In this document: in pieces, positions 1 through 8,610 of the stretch
Layout: every line of letters begins with the position of its first letter
How positions within the stretch are numbered: position 1 is the stretch's first letter
Source: a virus
Taxonomy: Duplodnaviria; Heunggongvirae; Uroviricota; Caudoviricetes
Direction: 5' to 3' (one strand)
Virus record (IMG/VR): IMGVR_UViG_2778261030_000017
Location: 1-8,610 of that record
Length of the DNA: 8,610 bases
Translations under genes and position numbers: made by a program
The notes under the pieces: generated by a model
What the model saw: only the letters and a program-made list of their open reading frames with translations
What the model was told of the DNA's origin: nothing
The model's database searches: none

Positions 1-137
1 ACCTGGCGCTGCGCAGGGCGAAAAGTGATGTTCAGAAGTGGGAGCGAGTCTGCGCCGCGCTGCGGGAGCTGAACAAGCACCGGGATATTGTTCGACAGAT
101 TACTGATTCTTCCCGCCGTGTTGTATCGGAAAAGTGA
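1..137 (+). CDS. 3' end of an upstream gene (partial, hypothetical phage protein)
   Basis: Open frame entering from the window edge (codons phased from position 3) ending at TGA 135-137, translating ...LALRRAKSDVQKWERVCAALRELNKHRDIVRQITDSSRRVVSEK. Backbone-like GC content. The stop sits 15 nt before the next start. No family recognised. Confidence 0.4.
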   Translation, partial: LALRRAKSDVQKWERVCAALRELNKHRDIVRQITDSSRRVVSEK

Positions 138-152
138 TTGCCGGAGGCGCTT

Positions 153-566
153 ATGGCAAAAGTATTTACACAGGAAGAGCGGGAAAAAATTAAAGGGCAG
201 GTTGTTGAGCTAGTACGCCGGAGTGGGCGCGAGACGTTACGGCAACTGGAAGCCAAGACAGGTGCGACAAGATATCTGATGAGCGTTCTTGCCAGAGAGC
301 TGGTTGCCAGTGGCGATGTATACAACTCTGGTTACGGGTTATTCCCATCTGAACAGGCTCGTAAGGACTGGCAAAACGCCCGCAAAAAACTATCGAGGGC
401 AAAACTGAAGAAACCGGTTGTGGTTGATCCTGACCTTATCTGGTCATTACCAGACGGAGAAATACGCCGCTATGACAGGCAATTGAACATAATTTGTAGT
501 GAGTGCCGTAACAGTGAAGTGATGCAGCGAGTTTTGATATTTTACACAGGAGTAATGATGGAATAG
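153..566 (+). CDS. hypothetical phage protein (about 137 aa)
   Basis: ORF-track frame 138..566; I place the start at ATG 153 because GGAGG at 143-147 sits 5 nt upstream (138 is TTG). Translation MAKVFTQEEREKIKGQVVELVRRSGRETLRQLEAKTGATRY... No family recognised with confidence. Confidence 0.55.
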   Translation: MAKVFTQEEREKIKGQVVELVRRSGRETLRQLEAKTGATRYLMSVLARELVASGDVYNSGYGLFPSEQARKDWQNARKKLSRAKLKKPVVVDPDLIWSLPDGEIRRYDRQLNIICSECRNSEVMQRVLIFYTGVMME

Positions 567-797
567 TGAAAATAACATGAAACCTTTGGATTCTGGTGTT
601 TCAGTGGATGGGAAAAGAGCAGATACATAGAAAATGAATAGCAATAATTCACAGTCTGGATGTTGTTTGTATGCTTATAAAATGATCCTAGTATGCATTG
701 CCGGAGTTGAATCAGCTCCAATGAAGAAACTGAGAGGAGTATTTAGAAGATAGCTAAATGGATGTAATTATTAGTATCTAAAAAATAGTATTTTTGA

Positions 798-863
798 AAT
801 GGGTCTAAGAACACAACAATGTACAAATGAGAAGTTATCTTTTAATATGTTCAAAGACCCATT
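798..863. repeat. long imperfect inverted repeat in the intergenic region downstream of the esterase gene
   Basis: AATGGGTCT (798-806) is the reverse complement of AGACCCATT (855-863). A second 5-bp segment pairs as well (809-813 with 848-852), giving a roughly 14-bp interrupted stem around a 34-nt loop. No T-run follows on either strand. Confidence 0.3.
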
Positions 864-917
864 AGGATTGATATCAGTTATGTTAGCTAGATTGATAAAG
901 TGATTACATATTTTCTG

Positions 918-1691
918 TTATATGCTGAAATGAATAATGCTATTCCAGAGTGCAGCAGAGAAAGTCTCCTGATGATTGAGCTCTGGAAATTGTACAATAG
1001 AAAAATTACTGTATTTTTCTGTCAAAATATTTCTCAAAACAGATTCCGCTTTGATGGCTTCAGGATATAAAGATGCGGAGTAATCAAGGCTAAGATTTCC
1101 GTTAAGCAAGCATATACTTTTAGTGTGCTTTGATTCTGATATATCATCTTTAATTATCTTGATGATTCTTTCATTCTGCCATAGAAGTGATGGTGCAGAT
1201 ATATAATAATAGTTAAAGCATGAATTATTTTTTAAGCAATCAAGCACAAAAATAGCACCTAGCGAGTGCCCCCATATACCGATTCTGGAACTGTTCGGAG
1301 CAATAGTACTAACCCATGGCATGATCTGAGTTAGTAATAATTCTCGGAAAGACTGGCTTCCTCCACCAGTAAAGTAGATCCATGCTGGTTTAGAGTTATC
1401 AACAATAGCATTTTCACCATCAGGAGTATAATCGTAAGCACGGCGATGAATGCTAAGGTTATTCCAAGATTCATAACCAAGTGTAACTAACACTGGTGGA
1501 TTGGGTAGTGCATCAATAACAGGCAGAATATCAGAAATGTAATTGTTGGCACTATTCCCATCAAGTATATAAAGAGTTGCATTATTTTTTTTAATGTTTT
1601 TTGGAGTAAAAATACATATTTTATATTTGGTGTCATGGTTAATTGAGTTAAATATGCGTGTTTGACAATGAATGTCCATATGTTTAGTCAT
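918..1691 (-). CDS. alpha/beta-hydrolase fold esterase (putative esterase family, serine hydrolase), 257 aa
   Basis: Minus-strand ORF with a GxSxG nucleophile motif (IGIWGHSLGAIF), an upstream YILDGN segment and a C-terminal His (FPELNHQ), consistent with a Ser-Asp-His triad. GGAG lies 5 nt upstream of the ATG on the minus strand (complement of 1697-1700). Very AT-rich relative to flanking DNA. No signal peptide evident. Confidence 0.75.
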   Translation of the reverse strand: MTKHMDIHCQTRIFNSINHDTKYKICIFTPKNIKKNNATLYILDGNSANNYISDILPVIDALPNPPVLVTLGYESWNNLSIHRRAYDYTPDGENAIVDNSKPAWIYFTGGGSQSFRELLLTQIMPWVSTIAPNSSRIGIWGHSLGAIFVLDCLKNNSCFNYYYISAPSLLWQNERIIKIIKDDISESKHTKSICLLNGNLSLDYSASLYPEAIKAESVLRNILTEKYSNFSIVQFPELNHQETFSAALWNSIIHFSI

Positions 1692-1854
1692 GCGTTCTCC
1701 CCATGAGCATTAAAGGATGCTTAAGATATGCTATGTCACTGATAAAAAATTTGTTGTGTGTGTTTAGTTATTTTATCTACCTCCATTATGATTTAAGACT
1801 GATATATGTTATCAGCAAAGGTACATCGTTATTATTTTACCTGTCAATACATTT

Positions 1855-1873
1855 GATATTGATTATCGTTTAC
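1855..1873. promoter_or_regulatory. Fur-box-like sequence in the esterase upstream region
   Basis: GATATTGATTATCGTTTAC matches the 19-bp Fur consensus GATAATGATAATCATTATC at 14 of 19 positions by my hand alignment. It lies about 165 bp upstream of the esterase start on the minus strand. The background is AT-rich, so a chance match is plausible. Confidence 0.2.
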
Positions 1874-2169
1874 ATCGCTTGCTTAGGAAATTGAAGGCAG
1901 GTAACTATCATGTCAATGAACTAACCCACAGTCTAACGTACTTCTTTCCCCAATCACCAACAACCAAATTCCTGTTATCACCACTGGGATTTTGGCGCAA
2001 CTTCATGGTGCAGAGGTAAATAGCATCAAGCAAAATCTCTTTTTCCGTTGTTGTCCTTATGGGACGTCTGTCTTTCTGACCGATTTCATATTGGCGAGGT
2101 AATGGGAAGTTAAGTAGAATAGCTGCGGGTGCTTGAGGCTATCTGCCTCGGGCATGAACACCAACGGCA

Positions 2170-2250
2170 GATAGAGAAAAGCCCCAGTTAACATTACGCG
2201 TCCTGCAAGACGCTTAACATTAATCTGAGGCTCAATCCATGCTGAACACA
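2170..2250 (-). ncRNA. sok: predicted Sok-type antisense RNA region of the hok/mok locus (boundaries approximate)
   Basis: By analogy with hok/sok loci, the antisense RNA is made from the opposite strand across the mok start (ATG 2239). A candidate minus-strand promoter is TTGCCT, 17-nt spacer, TAACCT (complement of about 2254-2282). A minus-strand hairpin GCGTC-N6-GACGC lies further downstream. Exact ends are not determinable from sequence. Confidence 0.3.
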
Positions 2251-2451
2251 TGTAGGTTAGCCTCTTACGTGCCGAAAGGCAAGGAGAAGCAGGCTATGAA
2301 GCAGCAAAAGGCGATGTTAATCGCCCTGATCGTCATCTGTTTAACCGTCATAGTGACGGCACTGGTAACGAGGAAAGACCTCTGCGAGGTGCGAATCCGA
2401 ACCGGTCAGACGGAGGTCGCTGTCTTCGTAGACTACGAATCTGAGAAGTAA
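2239..2451 (+). CDS. mok: Mok (modulator of killing) reading frame, in-frame N-terminal extension of Hok
   Basis: ATG 2239 opens MLNTCRLASYVPKGKEKQA, which runs in frame into the Hok start. The MLNTCR beginning matches my recollection of MokC-type proteins. Confidence 0.55.
   Translation: MLNTCRLASYVPKGKEKQAMKQQKAMLIALIVICLTVIVTALVTRKDLCEVRIRTGQTEVAVFVDYESEK
2296..2451 (+). CDS. hok: Hok/Gef family type I toxin (51 aa membrane peptide), HokD/RelF-like
   Basis: Hand translation gives MKQQKAMLIALIVICLTVIVTALVTRKDLCEVRIRTGQTEVAVFVDYESEK: one transmembrane helix plus the conserved Hok C-terminal motif. A G-rich interrupted hairpin follows at about 2458-2485, as at hok mRNA 3' ends. Confidence 0.9.
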   Translation: MKQQKAMLIALIVICLTVIVTALVTRKDLCEVRIRTGQTEVAVFVDYESEK

Positions 2452-2570
2452 GAGACCAGGCGGGGGAGTAATCTCCCGCCACCTCTGATGTGTCAGGCAT
2501 CCTCAACGCACCCGCGCTTTACCATACTGAAAATGCTGTTTGAATGTTCATCTCTGAAAGAGGACTATGA

Positions 2571-2915
2571 ATGAAAAAGGTATTGATTGCAGCACTTATT
2601 TCCGGTGTGTCTTTTGGCGCTTTTGCACAGCAGGGTGGTTTCCAGGGGCCAGAAGCAGAGCGTTCAACAGTAGCGCAGGCAAAAGAACTGAAGGATGATG
2701 CATGGGTTATCCTTGAAGGGAGCATCGTTAAAAAAGTGGGTGATGAACGTTATGAGTTTCGTGACAATAGCGGGACAATTGTCACGGATATTGATGACAG
2801 CGTATGGGCCGGGCAGAATGTTTCTCCGAAAGACAAAGTAAGAATTGAGGGTGAAATTGATAAAGACCTGAGCAGTGTTGAAGTTGATGTAAAGGCACTG
2901 AAATTATTAAAGTAA
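2571..2915 (+). CDS. secreted OB-fold protein, YgiW/YdeI (BOF, DUF388) family, 114 aa
   Basis: N-terminal signal peptide MKKVLIAALISGVSFGAFA followed by QQGGFQGP. The mature part follows the YgiW-type pattern (KDDAWVILEGSIVKKVGDERYEFRDNSGTIVTDIDDSVW...KDKVRIEGEIDKD). RBS AGAGGA lies 6 nt upstream of the ATG. Confidence 0.85.
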   Translation: MKKVLIAALISGVSFGAFAQQGGFQGPEAERSTVAQAKELKDDAWVILEGSIVKKVGDERYEFRDNSGTIVTDIDDSVWAGQNVSPKDKVRIEGEIDKDLSSVEVDVKALKLLK

Positions 2916-2933
2916 CCGCCCCTGCTTGTTAAG

Positions 2934-2960
2934 CCCGTCTTACTGACGGGTTTTCTGTTT
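2934..2960 (+). terminator. rho-independent terminator after the YgiW-like gene
   Basis: CCCGTC (2934-2939), loop TTACT, GACGGG (2945-2950), then TTTTCTGTTT. Confidence 0.6.
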
Positions 2961-2987
2961 GTACATTCCGGCGTATTGCCTTACAAT
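2959..2987 (+). promoter_or_regulatory. candidate sigma70 promoter for the operon running from the 3037 ORF through DUF968, rusA and Q
   Basis: TTGTAC (2959-2964), 17-nt spacer, TACAAT (2982-2987), about 50 nt upstream of ATG 3037. Found by eye only. Confidence 0.3.
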
Positions 2988-3036
2988 TCGCGCAGTCAGC
3001 CTGAACAACTGACACCTGCTGTCACCGGAGAATCCG

Positions 3037-3309
3037 ATGACACAACACATAAAATCCCACAATTCTGAAGCCGACCCGGAAATTAAGCAGGGGAGGCGTT
3101 TTCGTGCGCCTCAGTATGGCTGGTTTCACTATCTGTTCTGTACGATCGATGAGGCAGATATGCTTCAAGAGGCGTATCTGCGTCGCGGTGTCCGTGTGGA
3201 GCGGAGTCTGAACGCTGATCGTCTGACCTGGACCGTTTCTGTATATCTTCCTGTTCGTGCACATCTGCCACGGACACATGCCTGCTACCGTCAGCGCGTC
3301 TGGAGGTAA
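3037..3309 (+). CDS. hypothetical protein (90 aa), translationally coupled to the DUF968 gene
   Basis: GGAG at 3027-3030 sits 6 nt before ATG 3037. The stop TAA 3307-3309 is followed by the GTG start of the next gene at 3311. Family not recognised. Confidence 0.5.
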   Translation: MTQHIKSHNSEADPEIKQGRRFRAPQYGWFHYLFCTIDEADMLQEAYLRRGVRVERSLNADRLTWTVSVYLPVRAHLPRTHACYRQRVWR

Positions 3310-3310
3310 T

Positions 3311-4360
3311 GTGCGGGTATTACTTCGACCTGTTCTGGTTCCGGAACTCGGGCTGGTGGTCCTTAAGCCCGGTCGTGAATCATTGCCAGTTTTTCATCGC
3401 GGCAGGGTGCTGGTGGAGCCGGAACCGAAAAACATGCGGGCGCTGCCATCTGGAGCGGTTCCTACTGTTCGCCAGCCGCTGGCGGAAGATAAATCACTGC
3501 TGCCATTTTTCAGCGATGAGCGGGTGATTCGTGCAGCTGGCGGCGCTGGTGCACTGTCTGACTGGTTATTACGTCACGTGAAATCCTGCCAGTGGCCACA
3601 CGGCGATTATCATCACAGCGAAACCGTTATTCACAGTTACGGTGCTGGCGCAATGGTGTTGTGCTGGCACTGCGACAACCAGCTGCGCGACCAGACCTCC
3701 GAATCACTTGAGCAACTTACTCAACAAAATCTGACAGCCTGGATGATTGACGTCATACGCCATGTAATGAATGGCACGCAGGAGCGGGAATTATCGCTGG
3801 CTGAATTATCCTGGTGGGCGGTCCGCAATCAGGTGGCGGACGCGCTACCGGAAGCGGTATTACGTCGTTCGCTGGGGTTGCGTGCGGAAAAAATCCGCTC
3901 AATGTACCGTGAAAGCGACATCATACCGGGAGAACAGACCGCCACCAGCATACTGAAGCAGCGCACAAAAAATATTGCGCTACCGCCTCACACCCACCAG
4001 CAACAGAACCCACCACAGGAAAAGACGGTGGTCAGCATTGCCGTTGATCCGGAGTCTCCGGAATCCTTCATGAAACGACCTAAACGTCGCCGCTGGGTAA
4101 ATGAGAAATACACACGCTGGGTAAAGACACAGCCGTGTGCGTGTTGTGGTAAGCCAGCGGACGATCCTCATCATCTGATTGGTCATGGTCAGGGTGGAAT
4201 GGGAACAAAATCCCACGATATTTTCACGCTACCGCTGTGTCGGGAGCATCACAACGAGCTTCATGCGGATCCGCTGGCGTTCGAAGAAAAGCATGGTTCC
4301 CAGGTTGATTTAATTTTTCGTTTTCTTGATCACGCCTTTGCAACCGGCGTGCTCGGGTAA
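3311..4360 (+). CDS. DUF968 family phage protein (YdfU-like) with a C-terminal Cys/His HNH-like zinc motif, 349 aa
   Basis: Start reassigned to GTG 3311 (RBS GGAGG 3302-3306, 4-nt spacing), giving (M)RVLLRPVLVPELGLVVLKPGRE... and a 349-aa product that fits my recollection of YdfU-like proteins. C-terminal motif CACCGKPADDPHHLIGHG...CREHHNELH. The ORF-track start at 3257 has no RBS. Confidence 0.85.
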   Translation: MRVLLRPVLVPELGLVVLKPGRESLPVFHRGRVLVEPEPKNMRALPSGAVPTVRQPLAEDKSLLPFFSDERVIRAAGGAGALSDWLLRHVKSCQWPHGDYHHSETVIHSYGAGAMVLCWHCDNQLRDQTSESLEQLTQQNLTAWMIDVIRHVMNGTQERELSLAELSWWAVRNQVADALPEAVLRRSLGLRAEKIRSMYRESDIIPGEQTATSILKQRTKNIALPPHTHQQQNPPQEKTVVSIAVDPESPESFMKRPKRRRWVNEKYTRWVKTQPCACCGKPADDPHHLIGHGQGGMGTKSHDIFTLPLCREHHNELHADPLAFEEKHGSQVDLIFRFLDHAFATGVLG

Positions 4361-4372
4361 AAGAGGTTACTG

Positions 4373-4744
4373 ATGCGTATAGAGTTTGTTTTGCTTTACC
4401 CGCCGACGGTGAACACCTACTGGCGACGTCGTGGCAGCACATATTTTGTATCAAAAGCCGGTGAGCGTTATCGCCGGGCTGTGGCGCTTATTGTTCGCCA
4501 GCAGCGGCTGAAATTAAGCCTGTCCGGAAGGCTGGCGATAAAGGTGATTGCAGAGCCACCGGATAAGCGCCGCCGTGACCTGGACAACATTCTGAAAGCA
4601 CCGCTGGATGCGCTGACGCATGCGGAAGTGCTCATTGATGACGAGCAGTTTGATGAAATCAATATTGTGCGCGGTCAGCCTGTGCCAGGTGGACGGCTGG
4701 GCGTGAAGATTTACGAAATCAGAGGTGGTAACGATGGCGCGTGA
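4373..4744 (+). CDS. rusA: RusA family Holliday-junction resolvase
   Basis: 123 aa with the RusA signature [39 protein letters not shown] lies 6 nt upstream of the ATG. Position between the DUF968 gene and Q is the usual nin-region place. Confidence 0.9.
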
Positions 4745-5105
4745 TATCCAGATGGTTCTTGAGCGATGGGGGGCATGGGCAGCAAATAATCATGAAGATG
4801 TAACATGGCCCTCGATAGCTGCTGGTTTTAAAGGATTAATCCCGACTAAAGTGAAATCACGTCCTAAGTGTTCTGATGATGACGCCATGATAATTTGTGG
4901 TTGTATGGCACGATTAAACAAGAATAATCAGTATTTGCACGATTTGTTGGTGGATTATTACGTAGGTGGAATGACATTTATGGCTCTTGCACGTAAGCAT
5001 AGATGTTCTGATGGGCTTATTGGTAAAAGGCTTTATAAAGCGGAAGGTATTATTGAAGGAATGCTTATGGCTCTGAATGTCCGGTTAGATATGGATATGC
5101 GGTAG
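4734..5105 (+). CDS. late-gene antiterminator Q (phage antitermination protein Q family, QuuD-like)
   Basis: [25 protein letters not shown]...[11 protein letters not shown]...[27 protein letters not shown] matches my recollection of QuuD/82-type Q proteins. Start ATG 4734 follows GAGGTGG and overlaps the rusA stop by 11 nt. The ORF-track start at 4725 is a GTG inside that RBS. Confidence 0.85.
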
Positions 5106-5196
5106 GGATATATAGTGATGAGGGTTATGTTTTCTGTGTTTATAATTAACATGTTTATTTTTTGATGGTCATGTATTGTGGAAGGTAGATAAAATG

Positions 5197-5225
5197 TTGC
5201 CTGGTGAATTGAAAATATTGATAAT
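5197..5225 (+). promoter_or_regulatory. candidate sigma70 promoter for the CPBP gene
   Basis: TTGCCT (5197-5202), 17-nt spacer, GATAAT (5220-5225), about 30 nt upstream of ATG 5257. A separate perfect TATAAT at 5141-5146 may belong to the phage late promoter, but I cannot assign it. Confidence 0.3.
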
Positions 5226-5256
5226 CAATCTTCATCATTAAATAAAAGGAGTGCTT

Positions 5257-6075
5257 ATGTGGATTGTGTTAGTACTGTCACTGTCAACTCTCAGTTGGCA
5301 TAAGGTAGTGGCTTTTTCATTGTTGACGGTGTCTGTTGTCCTGGCTGTGCTTAATGATATTATTGATTGGTCGGTGTTATTTTTTGTTGCTACAATCGTT
5401 TTTTTTATTATTTTGAAGTTCAACTGGAAATATAACGCCTGGGCTAAATCTATATATGAAGTTGGCATAGTTTTATCAGCCATAGCATTATCTTTCCATC
5501 TATGGCCAGGGTTTCACAATCCTGTAGTGCTAAATTCTGTTACTGTTGGCCCTCAAAGTACTCCCTATACAATGTATTTTAATTTTGATAAAGCGCTGGT
5601 GCCATTTTTGTTAGTCCTGTGTACATCTTCTTTGTTTAAAAAAGAAGTAAAATCAGAAGTGTCTTTGTGGAAGTGGGGGGCTCTGTCGCTCTCTGTTCCT
5701 CTTATCCTGTTTTTGGCTGTTTTTTTTGGTGGATTAAAGCCAGAGATTCATTTTCCTGAGTGGTTGCCAGAGTTTATATTGGCTAATTTGTTTTTTGTGT
5801 CTCTGGCAGAGGAATCATTATTTAGAGGGTATATTCAATCACGGCTATCAGAAGTAACGTCTCCATTGGTTGCATTAATTGTGGCGGCTTTGTTGTTTGG
5901 TTTTTATCACTATTCAGGTGGTGCTTTACTTGTATTATTTGCCACGTTATCTGGTGTTGTGTATGGATTGTCATGGATGTGGAGTGGGCGTTTGTGGGTT
6001 GCCACCCTTTTCCATTTTGGTTTGAATCTGTGTCACTTGTTATTCTTTACCTATCCATTTTTAAAACATAATTGA
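5257..6075 (+). CDS. CPBP family intramembrane metalloprotease (CAAX protease / Abi domain), polytopic membrane protein, 272 aa
   Basis: All three CPBP motifs are present in order: EExxxR (AEESLFRGY), FxxxH (FGFYHYS), HxxxN (HFGLNLCH). Multiple hydrophobic helices. Start placed at ATG 5257 because AAGGAG 5246-5251 sits 5 nt upstream (the ORF-track GTG at 5251 lies inside the RBS). Strongly AT-rich compared with the Q gene immediately upstream. Confidence 0.85.
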   Translation: MWIVLVLSLSTLSWHKVVAFSLLTVSVVLAVLNDIIDWSVLFFVATIVFFIILKFNWKYNAWAKSIYEVGIVLSAIALSFHLWPGFHNPVVLNSVTVGPQSTPYTMYFNFDKALVPFLLVLCTSSLFKKEVKSEVSLWKWGALSLSVPLILFLAVFFGGLKPEIHFPEWLPEFILANLFFVSLAEESLFRGYIQSRLSEVTSPLVALIVAALLFGFYHYSGGALLVLFATLSGVVYGLSWMWSGRLWVATLFHFGLNLCHLLFFTYPFLKHN

Positions 6076-6216
6076 TTTTTTCTATGGTTTTAAATTTATA
6101 AGACTGAAAAATAGCAGGACGTGACATTTGCATGAAAAATATGCACGGCAAAGCATTTACGTACGTAAAAAATCAGGTATGCTGTTAAGAGTGGTTATTT
6201 CGCCGCATAGCTTGAC

Positions 6217-6240
6217 CCCGCCTCTGAGCGGGTTTTTTGT
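6217..6240 (+). terminator. rho-independent terminator downstream of the CPBP gene
   Basis: CCCGC (6217-6221), loop CTCTGA, GCGGG (6228-6232), then TTTTTTGT. Confidence 0.6.
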
Positions 6241-6361
6241 GCCCGCAAAGTAGCGCAGTGCGTTAAATGTGCTGGTAGTTATTAATACAGGTCTTTCAGC
6301 TTGCTGGCTTTTTCGACAAGAGTTATTGGTGTGTCACGTTAACCGGAAAGGGTAAAAAGAC

Positions 6362-6601
6362 ATGCTGAAACAGCAGGATATGACAGAAACCGCCAGAGTT
6401 GTGTTTGATGAATTAAGCGTCACCGAACCGGCGACGGTCGGGGAGATTGCGCAGAATACGTACCTTTCACGCGAGCGCTGCCAGTTAATACTGACCCAGC
6501 TGGTTATGCGGGTCTGGCAGACTATCAGTTCGGTTGTTACAGACGCCTTCAGTCCTGAAGGCTTTTTTATTTGTGGTAAATGGGCGGCTGGTGGGTGTTA
6601 G
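6362..6601 (+). CDS. questionable small ORF (79 aa, possible small HTH protein); may instead be non-coding late-leader RNA
   Basis: The ORF has backbone-like GC and a segment that could be a helix-turn-helix (TVGEIAQNTYLSRERCQLILTQL). Its last 57 nt contain a strong intrinsic terminator (6545-6570) upstream of the stop, and the RBS is weak. Coding status doubtful. Confidence 0.3.
   Translation: MLKQQDMTETARVVFDELSVTEPATVGEIAQNTYLSRERCQLILTQLVMRVWQTISSVVTDAFSPEGFFICGKWAAGGC
6545..6570 (+). terminator. strong rho-independent terminator (candidate tR'-like late-leader terminator)
   Basis: GCCTTCA (6545-6551), loop GTCC, TGAAGGC (6556-6562), then TTTTTTATTT. Perfect 7-bp stem. Confidence 0.6.
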
Positions 6602-6629
6602 CGGCACCTGTCAGTCCTTTGCTTATGTG

Positions 6630-6660
6630 TTGATGATAATTTACCTTTTGGGGCTATAAT
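6630..6660 (+). promoter_or_regulatory. candidate promoter for the AraC-family gene
   Basis: TTGATG (6630-6635), 19-nt spacer (longer than optimal), perfect TATAAT (6655-6660), about 35 nt upstream of ATG 6696. Confidence 0.3.
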
Positions 6661-6695
6661 TGAACTAACCAATTGCTAATGAAAGTAAAATTATA

Positions 6696-7409
6696 ATGGT
6701 TGTTGTCTGTTCAGTTATCATGGTTTGCTCCCCAATTAATATTTTTCTTGAAAAGGATACGTTGTCACTTAAGCCCGGCTCAGTCGTTCTGGCCACCAAA
6801 TGCATCAGGGCGCTTTTCCTTATGCATTATGGCAAAGTTAAAATTTTCGATATAAACCATTCCATAGTAAGTCAATATCTGGAAATTCAGCATAAGCTGA
6901 CAAGAACTCATCTGACTGACGTTCCGCTTTATCTGTCACTGGAACCCAACAACCCTGCGTTGGCTGAGGCTTTAATTACCAGCCAGAGATTTTCCGGAGA
7001 TACCACGGATATGTTTCTTATGATGGCATGCCTGTCGCTGTTTGAATCAGATGAACGGATATTATTATTTTTAAGTGGATGTTTATCCAGTATAAGTGCC
7101 AAAGTCAGGGCGATAATTCAGACAGATATATCAGCAAGCTGGACGCTTGGTGCGATTGCGTTACGCCTGCATATGAGTGAGAGTTTGTTAAAGATAAAAC
7201 TGAAAAATGAAGGGCACATGTTCAGTCGCTTGTTGCTGGAAGAGCGGATGCGTGTTGCTGTCAATATGTTATGTTCCCGGCATGGATATGGACAGGCTGT
7301 AGCAGAAAAATGCGGTTATTCAAGCTGGTCCTACTTTATTTCTGTATTTCACCGCTATTATGGCTTCCCGCCAGACAGATATGTATCCAGGCAAGGGCTT
7401 GATTATTGA
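6696..7409 (+). CDS. AraC/XylS family transcriptional regulator, small GadX/YdeO/AppY-like type (resembles prophage-encoded PatE/Psr-type regulators)
   Basis: 237 aa. The C-terminal about 100 aa show the AraC double-HTH pattern (WTLGAIALRLHMSESLLKIKLKNEGHMFSRLLLEERMRVAVNMLCSRHGYGQAVAEKCGYSSWSYFISVFHRYYGFPPDRY). The N-terminus MVVVCSVIMVC resembles AppY-type proteins as I recall them. AT-rich island; weak RBS, start could alternatively be ATG 6720. Confidence 0.85.
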   Translation: MVVVCSVIMVCSPINIFLEKDTLSLKPGSVVLATKCIRALFLMHYGKVKIFDINHSIVSQYLEIQHKLTRTHLTDVPLYLSLEPNNPALAEALITSQRFSGDTTDMFLMMACLSLFESDERILLFLSGCLSSISAKVRAIIQTDISASWTLGAIALRLHMSESLLKIKLKNEGHMFSRLLLEERMRVAVNMLCSRHGYGQAVAEKCGYSSWSYFISVFHRYYGFPPDRYVSRQGLDY

Positions 7410-7437
7410 TTTTCATCTGATTATTATTTTTTGACCC

Positions 7438-7513
7438 GGCCCTTTAGCTCAGTGGTGAGAGCGAGCGACTCATAATCGCCAGGTCGCTGGTTCAAATCCA
7501 GCAAGGGCCACCA
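7438..7513 (+). tRNA. ileZ: tRNA with CAT anticodon, Ile2 (lysidine-type, ileX/ileZ-like) rather than Met
   Basis: 76-nt cloverleaf folded by hand: acceptor GGCCCTT/AAGGGCC, D-arm GCTC-AGTGGTGA-GAGC, anticodon loop CTCATAA, T-arm GCTGG-TTCAAAT-CCAGC, discriminator A, encoded CCA. Closely resembles E. coli ileX as I recall it. Confidence 0.85.
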
Positions 7514-7520
7514 TCACATA

Positions 7521-7597
7521 CCGCCATTAGCTCATCAGGAAAGAGCGCCAGCTTTCGAAGCTGGTTGCGCGGAGTTCGGGTCCCCGAAGGCGGTCCA
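7521..7597 (+). tRNA. argN: tRNA-Arg (anticodon TCG), divergent and possibly a weak or pseudo-tRNA
   Basis: 77-nt fold with anticodon stem CCAGC/GCTGG and loop TTTCGAA (anticodon TCG), and a canonical D-arm. The acceptor stem has one A-A mismatch, the T-stem one A-C mismatch, and the T-loop is TTCGGGT instead of TTCRANT. Gene symbol assigned by position in the Stx-phage trio only. Confidence 0.55.
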
Positions 7598-7610
7598 TTA
7601 TCTGTATCCT

Positions 7611-7687
7611 GCGTTGTTAGCTCAGCCGGACAGAGCAATTGCCTTCTAAGCAATCGGTCACTGGTTCGAATCCAGTACAACGCGCCA
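7611..7687 (+). tRNA. argO: tRNA-Arg (anticodon TCT, reads AGA)
   Basis: 77-nt cloverleaf: acceptor GCGTTGT/ACAACGC, D-arm GCTC-AGCCGGACA-GAGC, anticodon stem ATTGC/GCAAT with loop CTTCTAA, T-arm ACTGG-TTCGAAT-CCAGT, discriminator G, CCA. Confidence 0.85.
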
Positions 7688-7701
7688 CACTTATTTTCCC
7701 T

Positions 7702-7727
7702 GGCTCGCTTTTGCGGGCCTTTTTTTT
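7702..7727 (+). terminator. rho-independent terminator directly after the tRNA cluster
   Basis: GGCTCGC (7702-7708), loop TTTT, GCGGGCC (7713-7719; one U-G wobble), then T8 (7720-7727). Confidence 0.6.
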
Positions 7728-7923
7728 AAATGTCTCACAATTCAGGCGGTTGACTGTTGTCTGGTTTGCGGGGAGTTTGTTAAAAGAAACTGGCATGGTG
7801 AATCCCCCTGTGCGGAGGGGCAATCAGCGAGTAGGTATATGGGATAATCGCGGATTCAGGTGCTGGTACTGAATTCACCGGGAGGCACCCGGCACCATGC
7901 AATGGCACATAGCGCCACTCTCC

Positions 7924-7950
7924 AGCCCCTCTCCGGAGGGGCTTTCTTAT
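7924..7950 (+). terminator. terminator-like hairpin (+ strand)
   Basis: AGCCCCTC (7924-7931), loop TCCG, GAGGGGCT (7936-7943), perfect 8-bp stem, followed by TTCTTAT. Confidence 0.45.
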
Positions 7951-7954
7951 GGAC

Positions 7955-7983
7955 AAAAAAAGCCCGCGCAGGGAGACGCGGGC
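7955..7983 (-). terminator. terminator-like hairpin oriented for the minus strand
   Basis: GCCCGCG (7962-7968), loop CAGGGAGA, CGCGGGC (7977-7983), preceded on the + strand by A7 (7955-7961), which is a T7 run after the hairpin on the minus strand. No convincing minus-strand gene upstream of it in this window. Confidence 0.35.
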
Positions 7984-8051
7984 GGCAAGGAATAAACAAC
8001 AAAACGTGAAGTAATATTTCAGCTGGCGAATAATATCCGACAGTAATCACT

Positions 8052-8074
8052 CTGCGCAATAGCGCGGCCTTTTT
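8052..8074 (+). terminator. terminator-like hairpin upstream of the NanS-p-like gene
   Basis: CTGCGC (8052-8057), loop AATA, GCGCGG (8062-8067; one U-G wobble), then CC and TTTTT (8070-8074). Confidence 0.35.
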
Positions 8075-8176
8075 CGTATTGCGGGCTGTTGTCTCTCTTC
8101 TGCCATTGTCCTGTAACTTCCGGACTTCAGCCCGCTCCTCATTTTACTCACAATATTATCCCGGCCGGGAGGATTC

Positions 8177-8610
8177 ATGGCATTTAAACACTATGATGTT
8201 GTCAGGGCGGCGTCGCCGTCAGACCTTGCGGAAAAGCTGACACACAAACTGAAAGAGGGCTGGCAGCCATACGGCGGACCGGTTGCCATTACGCCGTACA
8301 CACTGATGCAGGCGGTGGCTATTGAAGGAGATCCACAGGTCGGCCCTTCATCTAAGCCGGACTGGTTCTACGTGGTTGTGCTTGCCGGACAGTCCAACGG
8401 CATGGCCTACGGTGAAGGGCTTCCGTTACCGGATTCTTACGATGCTCCGGATCCGCGCATTAAACAGCTGGCGCGCCGCAGCACGGTAACTCCGGGTGGA
8501 GAGAGTTGTACGTATAACGACATCATTCCGGCTGACCACTGCCTGCATGATGTGCAGGATATGAGTACGCTGAATCATCCGAAGGCAGACCTGAGCAAAG
8601 GGCAGTACGG
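8177..8610 (+). CDS. nanS-p: 5' part of a NanS-p-like 9-O-acetyl sialate esterase (DUF1737 N-domain followed by an SGNH/SASA hydrolase domain); continues beyond the window
   Basis: RBS GGGAGG (8167-8172) 4 nt before ATG 8177. Hand translation MAFKHYDVVRAASPSDLAEKLTHKLKEGWQPYGGPVAITPYTLMQAVAIEG..., then FYVVVLAGQSNGMAYGEG carrying the SGNH-type GQSN catalytic-serine block. This matches my memory of the gene found just downstream of stx in Stx phages. Confidence 0.8.
   Translation, partial: MAFKHYDVVRAASPSDLAEKLTHKLKEGWQPYGGPVAITPYTLMQAVAIEGDPQVGPSSKPDWFYVVVLAGQSNGMAYGEGLPLPDSYDAPDPRIKQLARRSTVTPGGESCTYNDIIPADHCLHDVQDMSTLNHPKADLSKGQY

Follow-up and report, generated by a model that had tools for sequence, protein, structure and literature searches.

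Introduction

The late leader of phage lambda, pR'-6S-tR', joins a constitutive late promoter to a promoter-proximal loading site for the antiterminator Q and to an intrinsic terminator that Q-modified polymerase ignores (10.1101/651190, PMC6606751). In both lambda and phage 21, the Q-binding element lies in the spacer between the -35 and -10 hexamers of that promoter (PMC6606751). The lambda leader has a single terminator and holds no gene. In Sp5, the Stx2a prophage of Escherichia coli strain Sakai, the pR' start determined by dRNA-seq lies 258 nt upstream of the tR' 3' end determined by Term-seq (PMC7547250), and the pR' transcripts of lysogens end at a second terminator (StxS RNA; PMC7547250). 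This leader RNA of Sp5, StxS, acts as a small regulatory RNA (Sy, Lan & Tree 2020, PMC7547250). Two terminators are annotated after pR' in phage 933W, and the 258-nt interval of Sp5 fits the annotated 933W promoter and the second of them. A comparable arrangement is found in the IsrK-orf45-anrP region of Gifsy-1 in Salmonella, where a short terminated RNA is made 3' of a Q-family gene and partial read-through of its terminator yields an mRNA with a small ORF as its first cistron (Hershko-Shalev 2016, PMC4825925).

Here, we describe the corresponding region of an 8,610-nt stretch of DNA from a tailed phage (IMG/VR record IMGVR_UViG_2778261030_000017, positions 1 to 8,610), which we call the window. 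The initial annotation, made from the sequence of the window, drew attention to a 79-amino-acid (aa) ORF with a strong terminator inside it and offered two readings: a short non-coding late leader RNA miscalled as a gene, or a real small helix-turn-helix (HTH) protein with an attenuator. Our analyses support neither of these in full. The ORF is a decayed member of a conserved family of winged-helix genes, and the hairpin marks the end of the native gene.

Results

Many E. coli O157:H7 chromosomes match the 611 bases around the hairpin with 100% identity, and O157 genomes have as many as seven related copies. In strain Sakai, this segment belongs to prophage Sp4, and the 79-aa ORF (6362-6601, + strand, ATG start, TAG stop at 6599-6601) is ECs_1086, a "hypothetical protein" at 1,178,343-1,178,582; window positions are converted to Sakai coordinates (NC_002695.2) by adding 1,171,981. 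The window carries, in order, hok/sok (2127-2451), a DUF968 gene (3257-4360), rusA (4373-4744), the gene for a Q antiterminator of the Q21/Q933W family (ECs_1084; 4725-5105, + strand; Pfam PF06530, E = 8.7e-52), and a moron of low G+C content (0.33-0.41) encoding a CPBP/Rce1-like membrane protease (5251-6075, + strand; Pfam PF02517). The late-leader block follows at ~6110-6640, and after it come the psrA moron (6633-7409, ORF 6696-7409, + strand; an AraC-like regulator, ECs_1087, with Pfam HTH_18/HTH_AraC) and the tRNA genes ileZ-argN-argO (7438-7687). As the initial annotation had observed, the block at 6110-6640 lies between Q and the three tRNAs and stands apart in composition, with a G+C content of 0.43-0.52 across 6100-6600 versus 0.31-0.40 in the flanking CPBP and AraC-like genes.

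The window Q is 79% identical to the Q protein of 933W over 121 aa, and it also matches the solved Q21 structures 6P18 and 6JNX, the match to Q21 being weak (phmmer E = 9.6e-08). Its gene lies upstream of the late promoter on the same strand, as a cognate Q should, with the ~1-kb moron in between. Alignment with the Q-pR'-tR' region of 933W, a check that the initial annotation had proposed, revealed that window positions 6156-6238 correspond by homology to the stretch in which pR', qut, and the first terminator of that phage are annotated. The putative pR' of the window (6156-6183, + strand) consists of a -35 hexamer TTTACG (6156-6161), a 16-bp spacer, and a -10 hexamer TATGCT (6178-6183), and it aligns base for base with the annotated 933W pR' (TTTACG-16-TATCAT). 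It matches the consensus at 8 of 12 positions, which is below the threshold of the promoter scan; it was found through homology, and it is on its homology to the 933W pR' that we assign it as a sigma-70 late promoter. By alignment with Sp5 and 933W, the transcript is predicted to start near A6190, at the A of AAGAGTGG.

The initially transcribed region (6184-6216, + strand; GTTAAGAGTGGTTAyTTCGCC...), in which the sigma-dependent pause and the qut site are expected, is conserved along with Q. Its motif TAAGAGTGGTTA is present in both the window and 933W, where qut is annotated in this region; it is invariant in all seven loci whose Q is homologous to that of the window (45-80% identity) and absent from three loci with a 250-aa protein of the Q-lambda family. 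Among the Q-lambda-type loci, SfV carries the lambda-like CAACGATGGG, and Stx2k and Citrobacter phiNP carry neither motif. Across a wider set of IMG/VR and phage loci, TAAGAGTGGTTA and CAACGATGGG mark separate groups, so that the sequence upstream of the first terminator tracks the Q family. The -35/-10 spacer is common only to the three closest Qs, as would be expected if the Q-binding element lay within it. We found no convincing conserved -10-like pause hexamer in 6190-6216, and the Q21 binding repeat TGAGCA (PMC6606751) is absent, as expected for a Q that matches Q21 weakly.

Q-specific sequence gives way to shared sequence just upstream of the first intrinsic terminator, T1 (6217-6238, + strand), which was recovered by a terminator scan. 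T1 has a CCCGC/GCGGG stem, a 6-nt loop, and a T6 tract (-9.0 kcal/mol), and it is homologous to the first annotated terminator of 933W (CCCGC...GCGGG plus a T-run) and to an annotated terminator of SfV. Together with pR', it lies ~350 bases upstream of the gene-end terminator. Of 109 related loci, 100 have a canonical terminator ~128 nt before the ORF; its stem varies in sequence (CCCGC, CCGCC, CCACC, CTCGC). Between T1 and the ATG, no promoter-like site was detected by scan and none was convincing by eye, and the consensus fold of this 5' untranslated spacer is without covariation support (covariation term +0.62). No Rfam family matched 6080-6700 at gathering thresholds; relaxing the search to E ≤ 10 returned insignificant matches to isrK, P9, and a snoRNA. 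The isrK match, at 6161-6238, scores 13.9 bits (gathering score 50; E = 1.9), and its end coincides exactly with the U-tract of T1. Two related loci (L011 2467-2583 and L012 2524-2637, equivalent to window 6128-6253) have annotated "hypothetical protein" ORFs across pR'-T1, and these, unlike ECs_1086, are likely spurious calls on a non-coding leader.

Several lines of evidence establish what ECs_1086 is. RefSeq annotates exactly 6362-6558 (+ strand), not 6362-6601, as a "TrmB family transcriptional regulator, frameshifted," and both alignment and tblastn agree with a pseudogene of PHROG 331. One G is missing after 6508, where the window reads GGTTAT-GCGGG and phiP27 L23 and SfV orf47 read GGTTATGGCGGG; with an intact protein as the tblastn query, the match to the window breaks into two frames at 6508. 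Restoring the G yields a 65-aa protein ending in ...AGLADYQFGCYRRLQS, followed by a TGA at 6556-6558. The annotated ORF is made up of 49 native codons and 30 out-of-frame codons that run through the second terminator (T2) into a downstream stem-loop (HP3). Where an intact frame of 63-67 aa ends in AGLxDYQFGCYxRL, residues 50-65 of the window copy are replaced by 30 unrelated residues. The gene is dead in Sp4 because these unrelated residues take the place of the wing of the winged helix. ECs_1086 is thus a frameshifted pseudogene of a small conserved winged-helix gene, and its 79-aa product, which has no Pfam match, is not the real protein. The pseudogene call was already known, RefSeq marking the gene as frameshifted, and so was the kind of element. 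We rejected programmed frameshifting, as TTATGCGGG contains no slippery sequence and the intact alleles are simply one G longer.

The broken allele is a minority form. Of 1,534 E. coli records with the segment, 347 match it exactly; identity is 95-99% in the remaining 1,187, and the non-exact records among the matches listed all span 64 nt, the length of the intact allele. In the phage and IMG/VR set, the broken allele was found in 3 of ~120 loci, the window counted. A second, independent C-terminal variant of the small protein, P0104 (...AGLGAQQIWCFSSPQS), represents 83 member sequences and suggests recurrent decay of the winged-helix gene in prophages.

The intact family presents a very different picture from that of a non-coding leader. 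We compared 10 intact homologues of 63-67 aa from phages of E. coli, Shigella, Klebsiella, and Citrobacter. Their pairwise dN/dS values are mostly ~0.03-0.15, and the alignment varies in 23 columns at codon position 1, in 16 at position 2, and in 55 at position 3. A protein database holds 327 homologues across the Enterobacteriaceae, and the PHROG 331 profile matches the repaired window sequence with E = 3e-37 and the 79-aa ORF with E = 5.7e-32. Judged by these patterns of substitution, the small winged-helix proteins are the products of real genes under strong purifying selection. The initial annotation had named conserved homologues under purifying selection as the finding that would contradict its proposal of a protein call made on a non-coding leader, and for the gene family this is what we observe.

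The intact phiP27 protein scores 18 bits against Pfam TrmB (PF01978), below the gathering threshold of 25.6, and the window ORF has no match to it; NCBIfam and a sequence search of solved structures gave no match to the small protein. AlphaFold models an intact member as a winged helix (pLDDT 91), with helices at residues 4-16, 26-33, and 37-49 and a wing formed by strands 53-56 and 59-62, and a fold search places it with generic winged helices of the IclR/MarR-like N-domain type (TM 0.7-0.8). On this model, the frameshift at residue 50 would eliminate the wing (residues 53-62), and the corresponding stretch, AGLxDYQFGCYxRL, ranks among the best conserved of the family. The intact relatives phiP27 L23 and SfV orf47 are 98% identical to the window copy over its first 49 residues and share with it the order of T1, a ~128-nt spacer, the ORF, and a hairpin that overlaps the stop codon; they differ in that the window copy is frameshifted and without its wing.

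The hairpin itself is as the initial annotation had described it, a 7-bp stem followed by T6 upstream of the stop codon of the annotated ORF, and folding and covariation agree on it. In T2 (6545-6568, + strand; terminator scan and RNA folding), GCCTTCA (6545-6551) pairs with TGAAGGC (6556-6562) over 7 bp, four of them G-C, around a GTCC loop (6552-6555), and T6 (6563-6568) and then ATTT follow. We defined a canonical intrinsic terminator by a G+C-rich stem of at least 5 bp, a loop of 3-8 nt, and a U-tract immediately after, and T2 has the stem, loop, and T6 of such a Rho-independent terminator. Its RNA folds at -10.5 kcal/mol (z = -3.8), and none of 200 shuffles was equally stable. Across 25 distinct variants of the stem, 90% of cells are paired, versus 33-68% with slid partners. 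The pair that joins a synonymous third position of a Leu codon to its partner is never broken: 13 sequences have C-G there and 12 have U-A. The stop codon lies within the loop or the 3' arm of the T2 hairpin in all 10 intact phage homologues, and the native TGA of the window (6556-6558) provides the first three bases of the 3' arm. T2 is therefore an ordinary gene-end terminator that the shifted frame overruns; it appears to lie "inside" the ORF because a 1-base deletion makes the frame skip its stop and run 43 bases further. The U-tract is canonical in 72 of the 109 related loci, including those of the window type, and absent in 37, which makes T2 less constant than T1. What is conserved may accordingly be the T2 hairpin, not termination.

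Beyond T2 lies a block that is better conserved than the adjoining gene. A 21-nt sequence, AATGGGCGGCTGGTGGGTGTT (6579-6599), does not vary among the 11 phage loci, not even in those whose ORF has as little as 53-70% identity, and forms the 5' arm of HP3, an interrupted 20-bp stem-loop (6580-6626, + strand) recognized by conservation and folding. The folding energy of HP3 is about -30 kcal/mol in relatives; in the window, where the stem-loop is a decayed remnant, it is -20. In the HP3 alignment, 99% of cells are paired (37-58% with partners slid), and substitutions in the 3' arm almost always keep the pairing, as G-C to G-U or U-G to U-A changes, which fits an RNA hairpin on the + strand; because most of the sequences were collected for having the exact 5' arm, two-sided covariation is not countable. 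An exact-match scan of IMG/VR with AATGGGCGGCTGGTGGGTGTT found at least 119 contigs, and among the matches listed, which were selected through AATGGGCGGCTGGTGGGTGTT, a Dam methylase gene follows the block in 115 of 120 loci.

The 5' arm of HP3 contains a Chi octamer (GCTGGTGG; 6587-6594), one of five in the 8.6-kb window versus 0.15 expected from shuffles; the others lie at 3352 and 3409, on the + strand like that at 6587, and at 3942 and 3994, on the - strand. Many relatives have an extra Chi between T1 and the small ORF, at a place where the window copy is degenerate (6262-6269, GCTGGTAG). The + strand copies face the lysis/cos side, which, by comparison with lambda, would be the orientation recognized by RecBCD entering at cos. 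The HP3 block could possibly act as a Chi site, as an element of RNA processing or translation, or in both ways.

Homology between the window and its methylase-bearing relatives ends near 6632, and psrA replaces the Dam methylase that most of them carry. ECs_1087 is psrA, a prophage-encoded secretion regulator (PMC13502914); a literature search on this locus tag yielded the psrA name alone, and the same search on ECs1086 found no match. The gene is low in G+C and is preceded by a promoter-like site at 6633-6660 (ATGATA-16-TATAAT) that matches the consensus at 10 of 12 positions. The Sakai annotation gives it a length of 588 nt, starting later than the 714-nt ORF. HnrS resides in Sp9, Sp10, and Sp12, not in Sp4.

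Discussion

We think it probable that the Sp4 late leader comprises pR', T1, the frameshifted winged-helix gene, and T2, with the native stop codon of the gene in the 3' arm of T2. That the promoter is active in Sp4, that transcripts end at T1 and T2, and that Q governs their read-through are predictions from homology. In the absence of Q, polymerase leaving pR' would stop at T1 or, upon leaking past it, at T2, giving short RNAs with predicted lengths of ~49 nt and ~379 nt. Once Q is loaded at the promoter-proximal pause, polymerase would pass both terminators and go on to transcribe psrA, the tRNAs, and the lysis genes. A ribosome translating the leader would miss the TGA owing to the G lost after 6508, read through T2, and stop at 6599-6601. 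T1 has the look of a competent terminator, and few polymerases may reach T2 in a lysogen; the end of the Sp5 lysogen transcript, on the other hand, fits the second terminator of 933W, which implies that the T1 homologue there is at least partly read through. By analogy with that leader, T2 is probably a second Q-sensitive terminator of the Sp4 leader.

The homologous 933W/Sp5 leader is the closest described system (PMC7547250). The two share a homologous promoter, initially transcribed region, and first terminator, a Q that is 79% identical, a second intrinsic terminator a few hundred nucleotides downstream, and the ileZ-argN-argO tRNAs after it. What lies between the terminators, however, is not related in the two: 933W has the non-coding StxS there, with 258 nt from start to end, whereas the Sp4 leader, at a predicted ~379 nt, holds a broken protein gene. 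Q and pR' overlap in 933W and are separated by the 1-kb moron in Sp4, and Sp4 has no stx downstream. Lambda is more distant, with a Q of family PF03589 in place of the PF06530 of Sp4. The resemblance to IsrK is one of analogy, not homology: the sequences show no significant relationship, the genes downstream differ, and the Orf45 protein is not conserved, in contrast to the ORF family of the window.

The separation of Q from pR' (5106-6155, occupied by the CPBP moron) is unlike the textbook arrangement and counts against a late leader. At the same place between Q and pR', phiP27 has a GIY-YIG nuclease and Stx2a_1447 has two genes on the reverse strand, and the site looks like an insertion hot spot. 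The late-leader proposal of the initial annotation holds with respect to location, a pR'-like promoter, and, through homology to 933W, the start of a late unit; its non-coding character does not, given the conserved gene. A tR'-like role for the hairpin at 6545 is similarly plausible by analogy with the two-terminator leader of 933W and Sp5. The placement of pR', T1, and T2 in Sp4, with the promoter 1 kb downstream of Q and two terminators in series after it, is a new detail.

Other readings of these data have to be weighed against the two-terminator leader. T1 alone could be the working tR'. T2 would then take no part in Q control and serve only as the 3' end or stabilizing hairpin of the small gene's message, and that gene would be either an ordinary first late gene or one driven by its own weak promoter. 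The constancy of T1, canonical in 100 of 109 loci and travelling with its neighbors whatever the Q type, is what this reading predicts, and so is the retention of the T2 hairpin in the 37 of 109 relatives that have lost its U-tract. We nevertheless think it rather unlikely, as T2 of the window has a full T6 and folds at -10.5 kcal/mol, no promoter-like site was detected between T1 and the ATG, and the pR' transcript of Sp5 lysogens ends 258 nt downstream, at a position that fits the second terminator of 933W (PMC7547250).

Two further readings, each descended from the initial annotation, concern the ORF. The 79-aa protein could be a functional variant and T2 a translation-sensitive attenuator: ribosomes crossing 6545-6568 would mask the hairpin, and pR' transcripts would leak into psrA and the tRNAs. 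The shifted frame does put ribosomes over the terminator, the first 49 residues (helices 1-3) are intact, and the allele is fixed in a large EHEC lineage (347 exact-match records). Against this, the lost C terminus, AGLxDYQFGCYxRL, is the wing and among the best conserved stretches of the family, the new tail merely translates T2 and an arm of HP3, RefSeq calls the gene a pseudogene, and the independent variant P0104 suggests that decay is recurrent. The stop codon of the intact gene lies within the hairpin, which makes the terminator one at a gene end and not an internal attenuator, and we consider the functional-variant reading highly improbable. We give still less credence to the notion that the whole segment is a non-coding late leader RNA of the lambda 6S/StxS type and the protein call a pure artefact of annotation. 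Its position downstream of Q and pR' and the non-coding nature of the equivalent 933W/Sp5 interval (StxS, PMC7547250) would suit such an RNA, but the intact homologues have a 3:1 excess of third-position changes, dN/dS of ~0.03-0.15 across genera, a conserved length of 63-67 aa, and a confidently predicted winged-helix fold. For the gene family, the non-coding reading is refuted; at the window locus, it is true only in the trivial sense that a pseudogene no longer codes.

T1, the ORF, T2, and the downstream block travel together behind different types of pR', and the recognition of this conserved module of T1, gene, hairpin, and stem-loop is new. A broader proposal is that T1, the winged-helix gene, its stop hairpin, the Chi stem-loop, and the Dam methylase form a self-contained module that follows the late promoter in many enterobacterial lambdoid phages, of any Q family, and whose protein could control the methylase or read-through of the leader. 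We regard this proposal as unlikely. Were it correct, the protein would be made at a low level in lysogens from a constitutive pR' through a leaky T1, and the Chi hairpin could act both on RNA, in processing or translation control, and on DNA, in RecBCD protection near the cos-proximal end. The replacement of the methylase by psrA in Sp4 would then have made the regulator dispensable, which would explain the decay of the gene.

In the two-terminator leader that we favor, pR' and its terminators would govern read-through into psrA, whose product regulates type III secretion and acid resistance, and into three rare-codon tRNAs. The Sp4 leader could also, with StxS of Sp5 as the precedent, be a new regulatory RNA. 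Otherwise, this is ordinary biology, a decayed gene beside its terminator. ECs_1086 and similar calls should be treated as pseudogenes, as RefSeq does already.

The tRNA cluster downstream of psrA has its own features. ileZ-argN-argO is the usual tRNA set of Stx phages, and the gene at 7438-7513 is called tRNA-Met (anticodon CAT) by ARAGORN and ileZ (tRNA-Ile, CAT) by RefSeq and the Sakai annotation. A promoter-like site at 7399-7427 (TTGATT-17-TATTAT) occupies the position of the annotated tRNA promoter pT of 933W. A terminator lies 3' of the cluster at 7702-7727, and just past it, at 7764-7954, is a match to the small RNA family STnc100 that scores 138 bits against a gathering score of 47.
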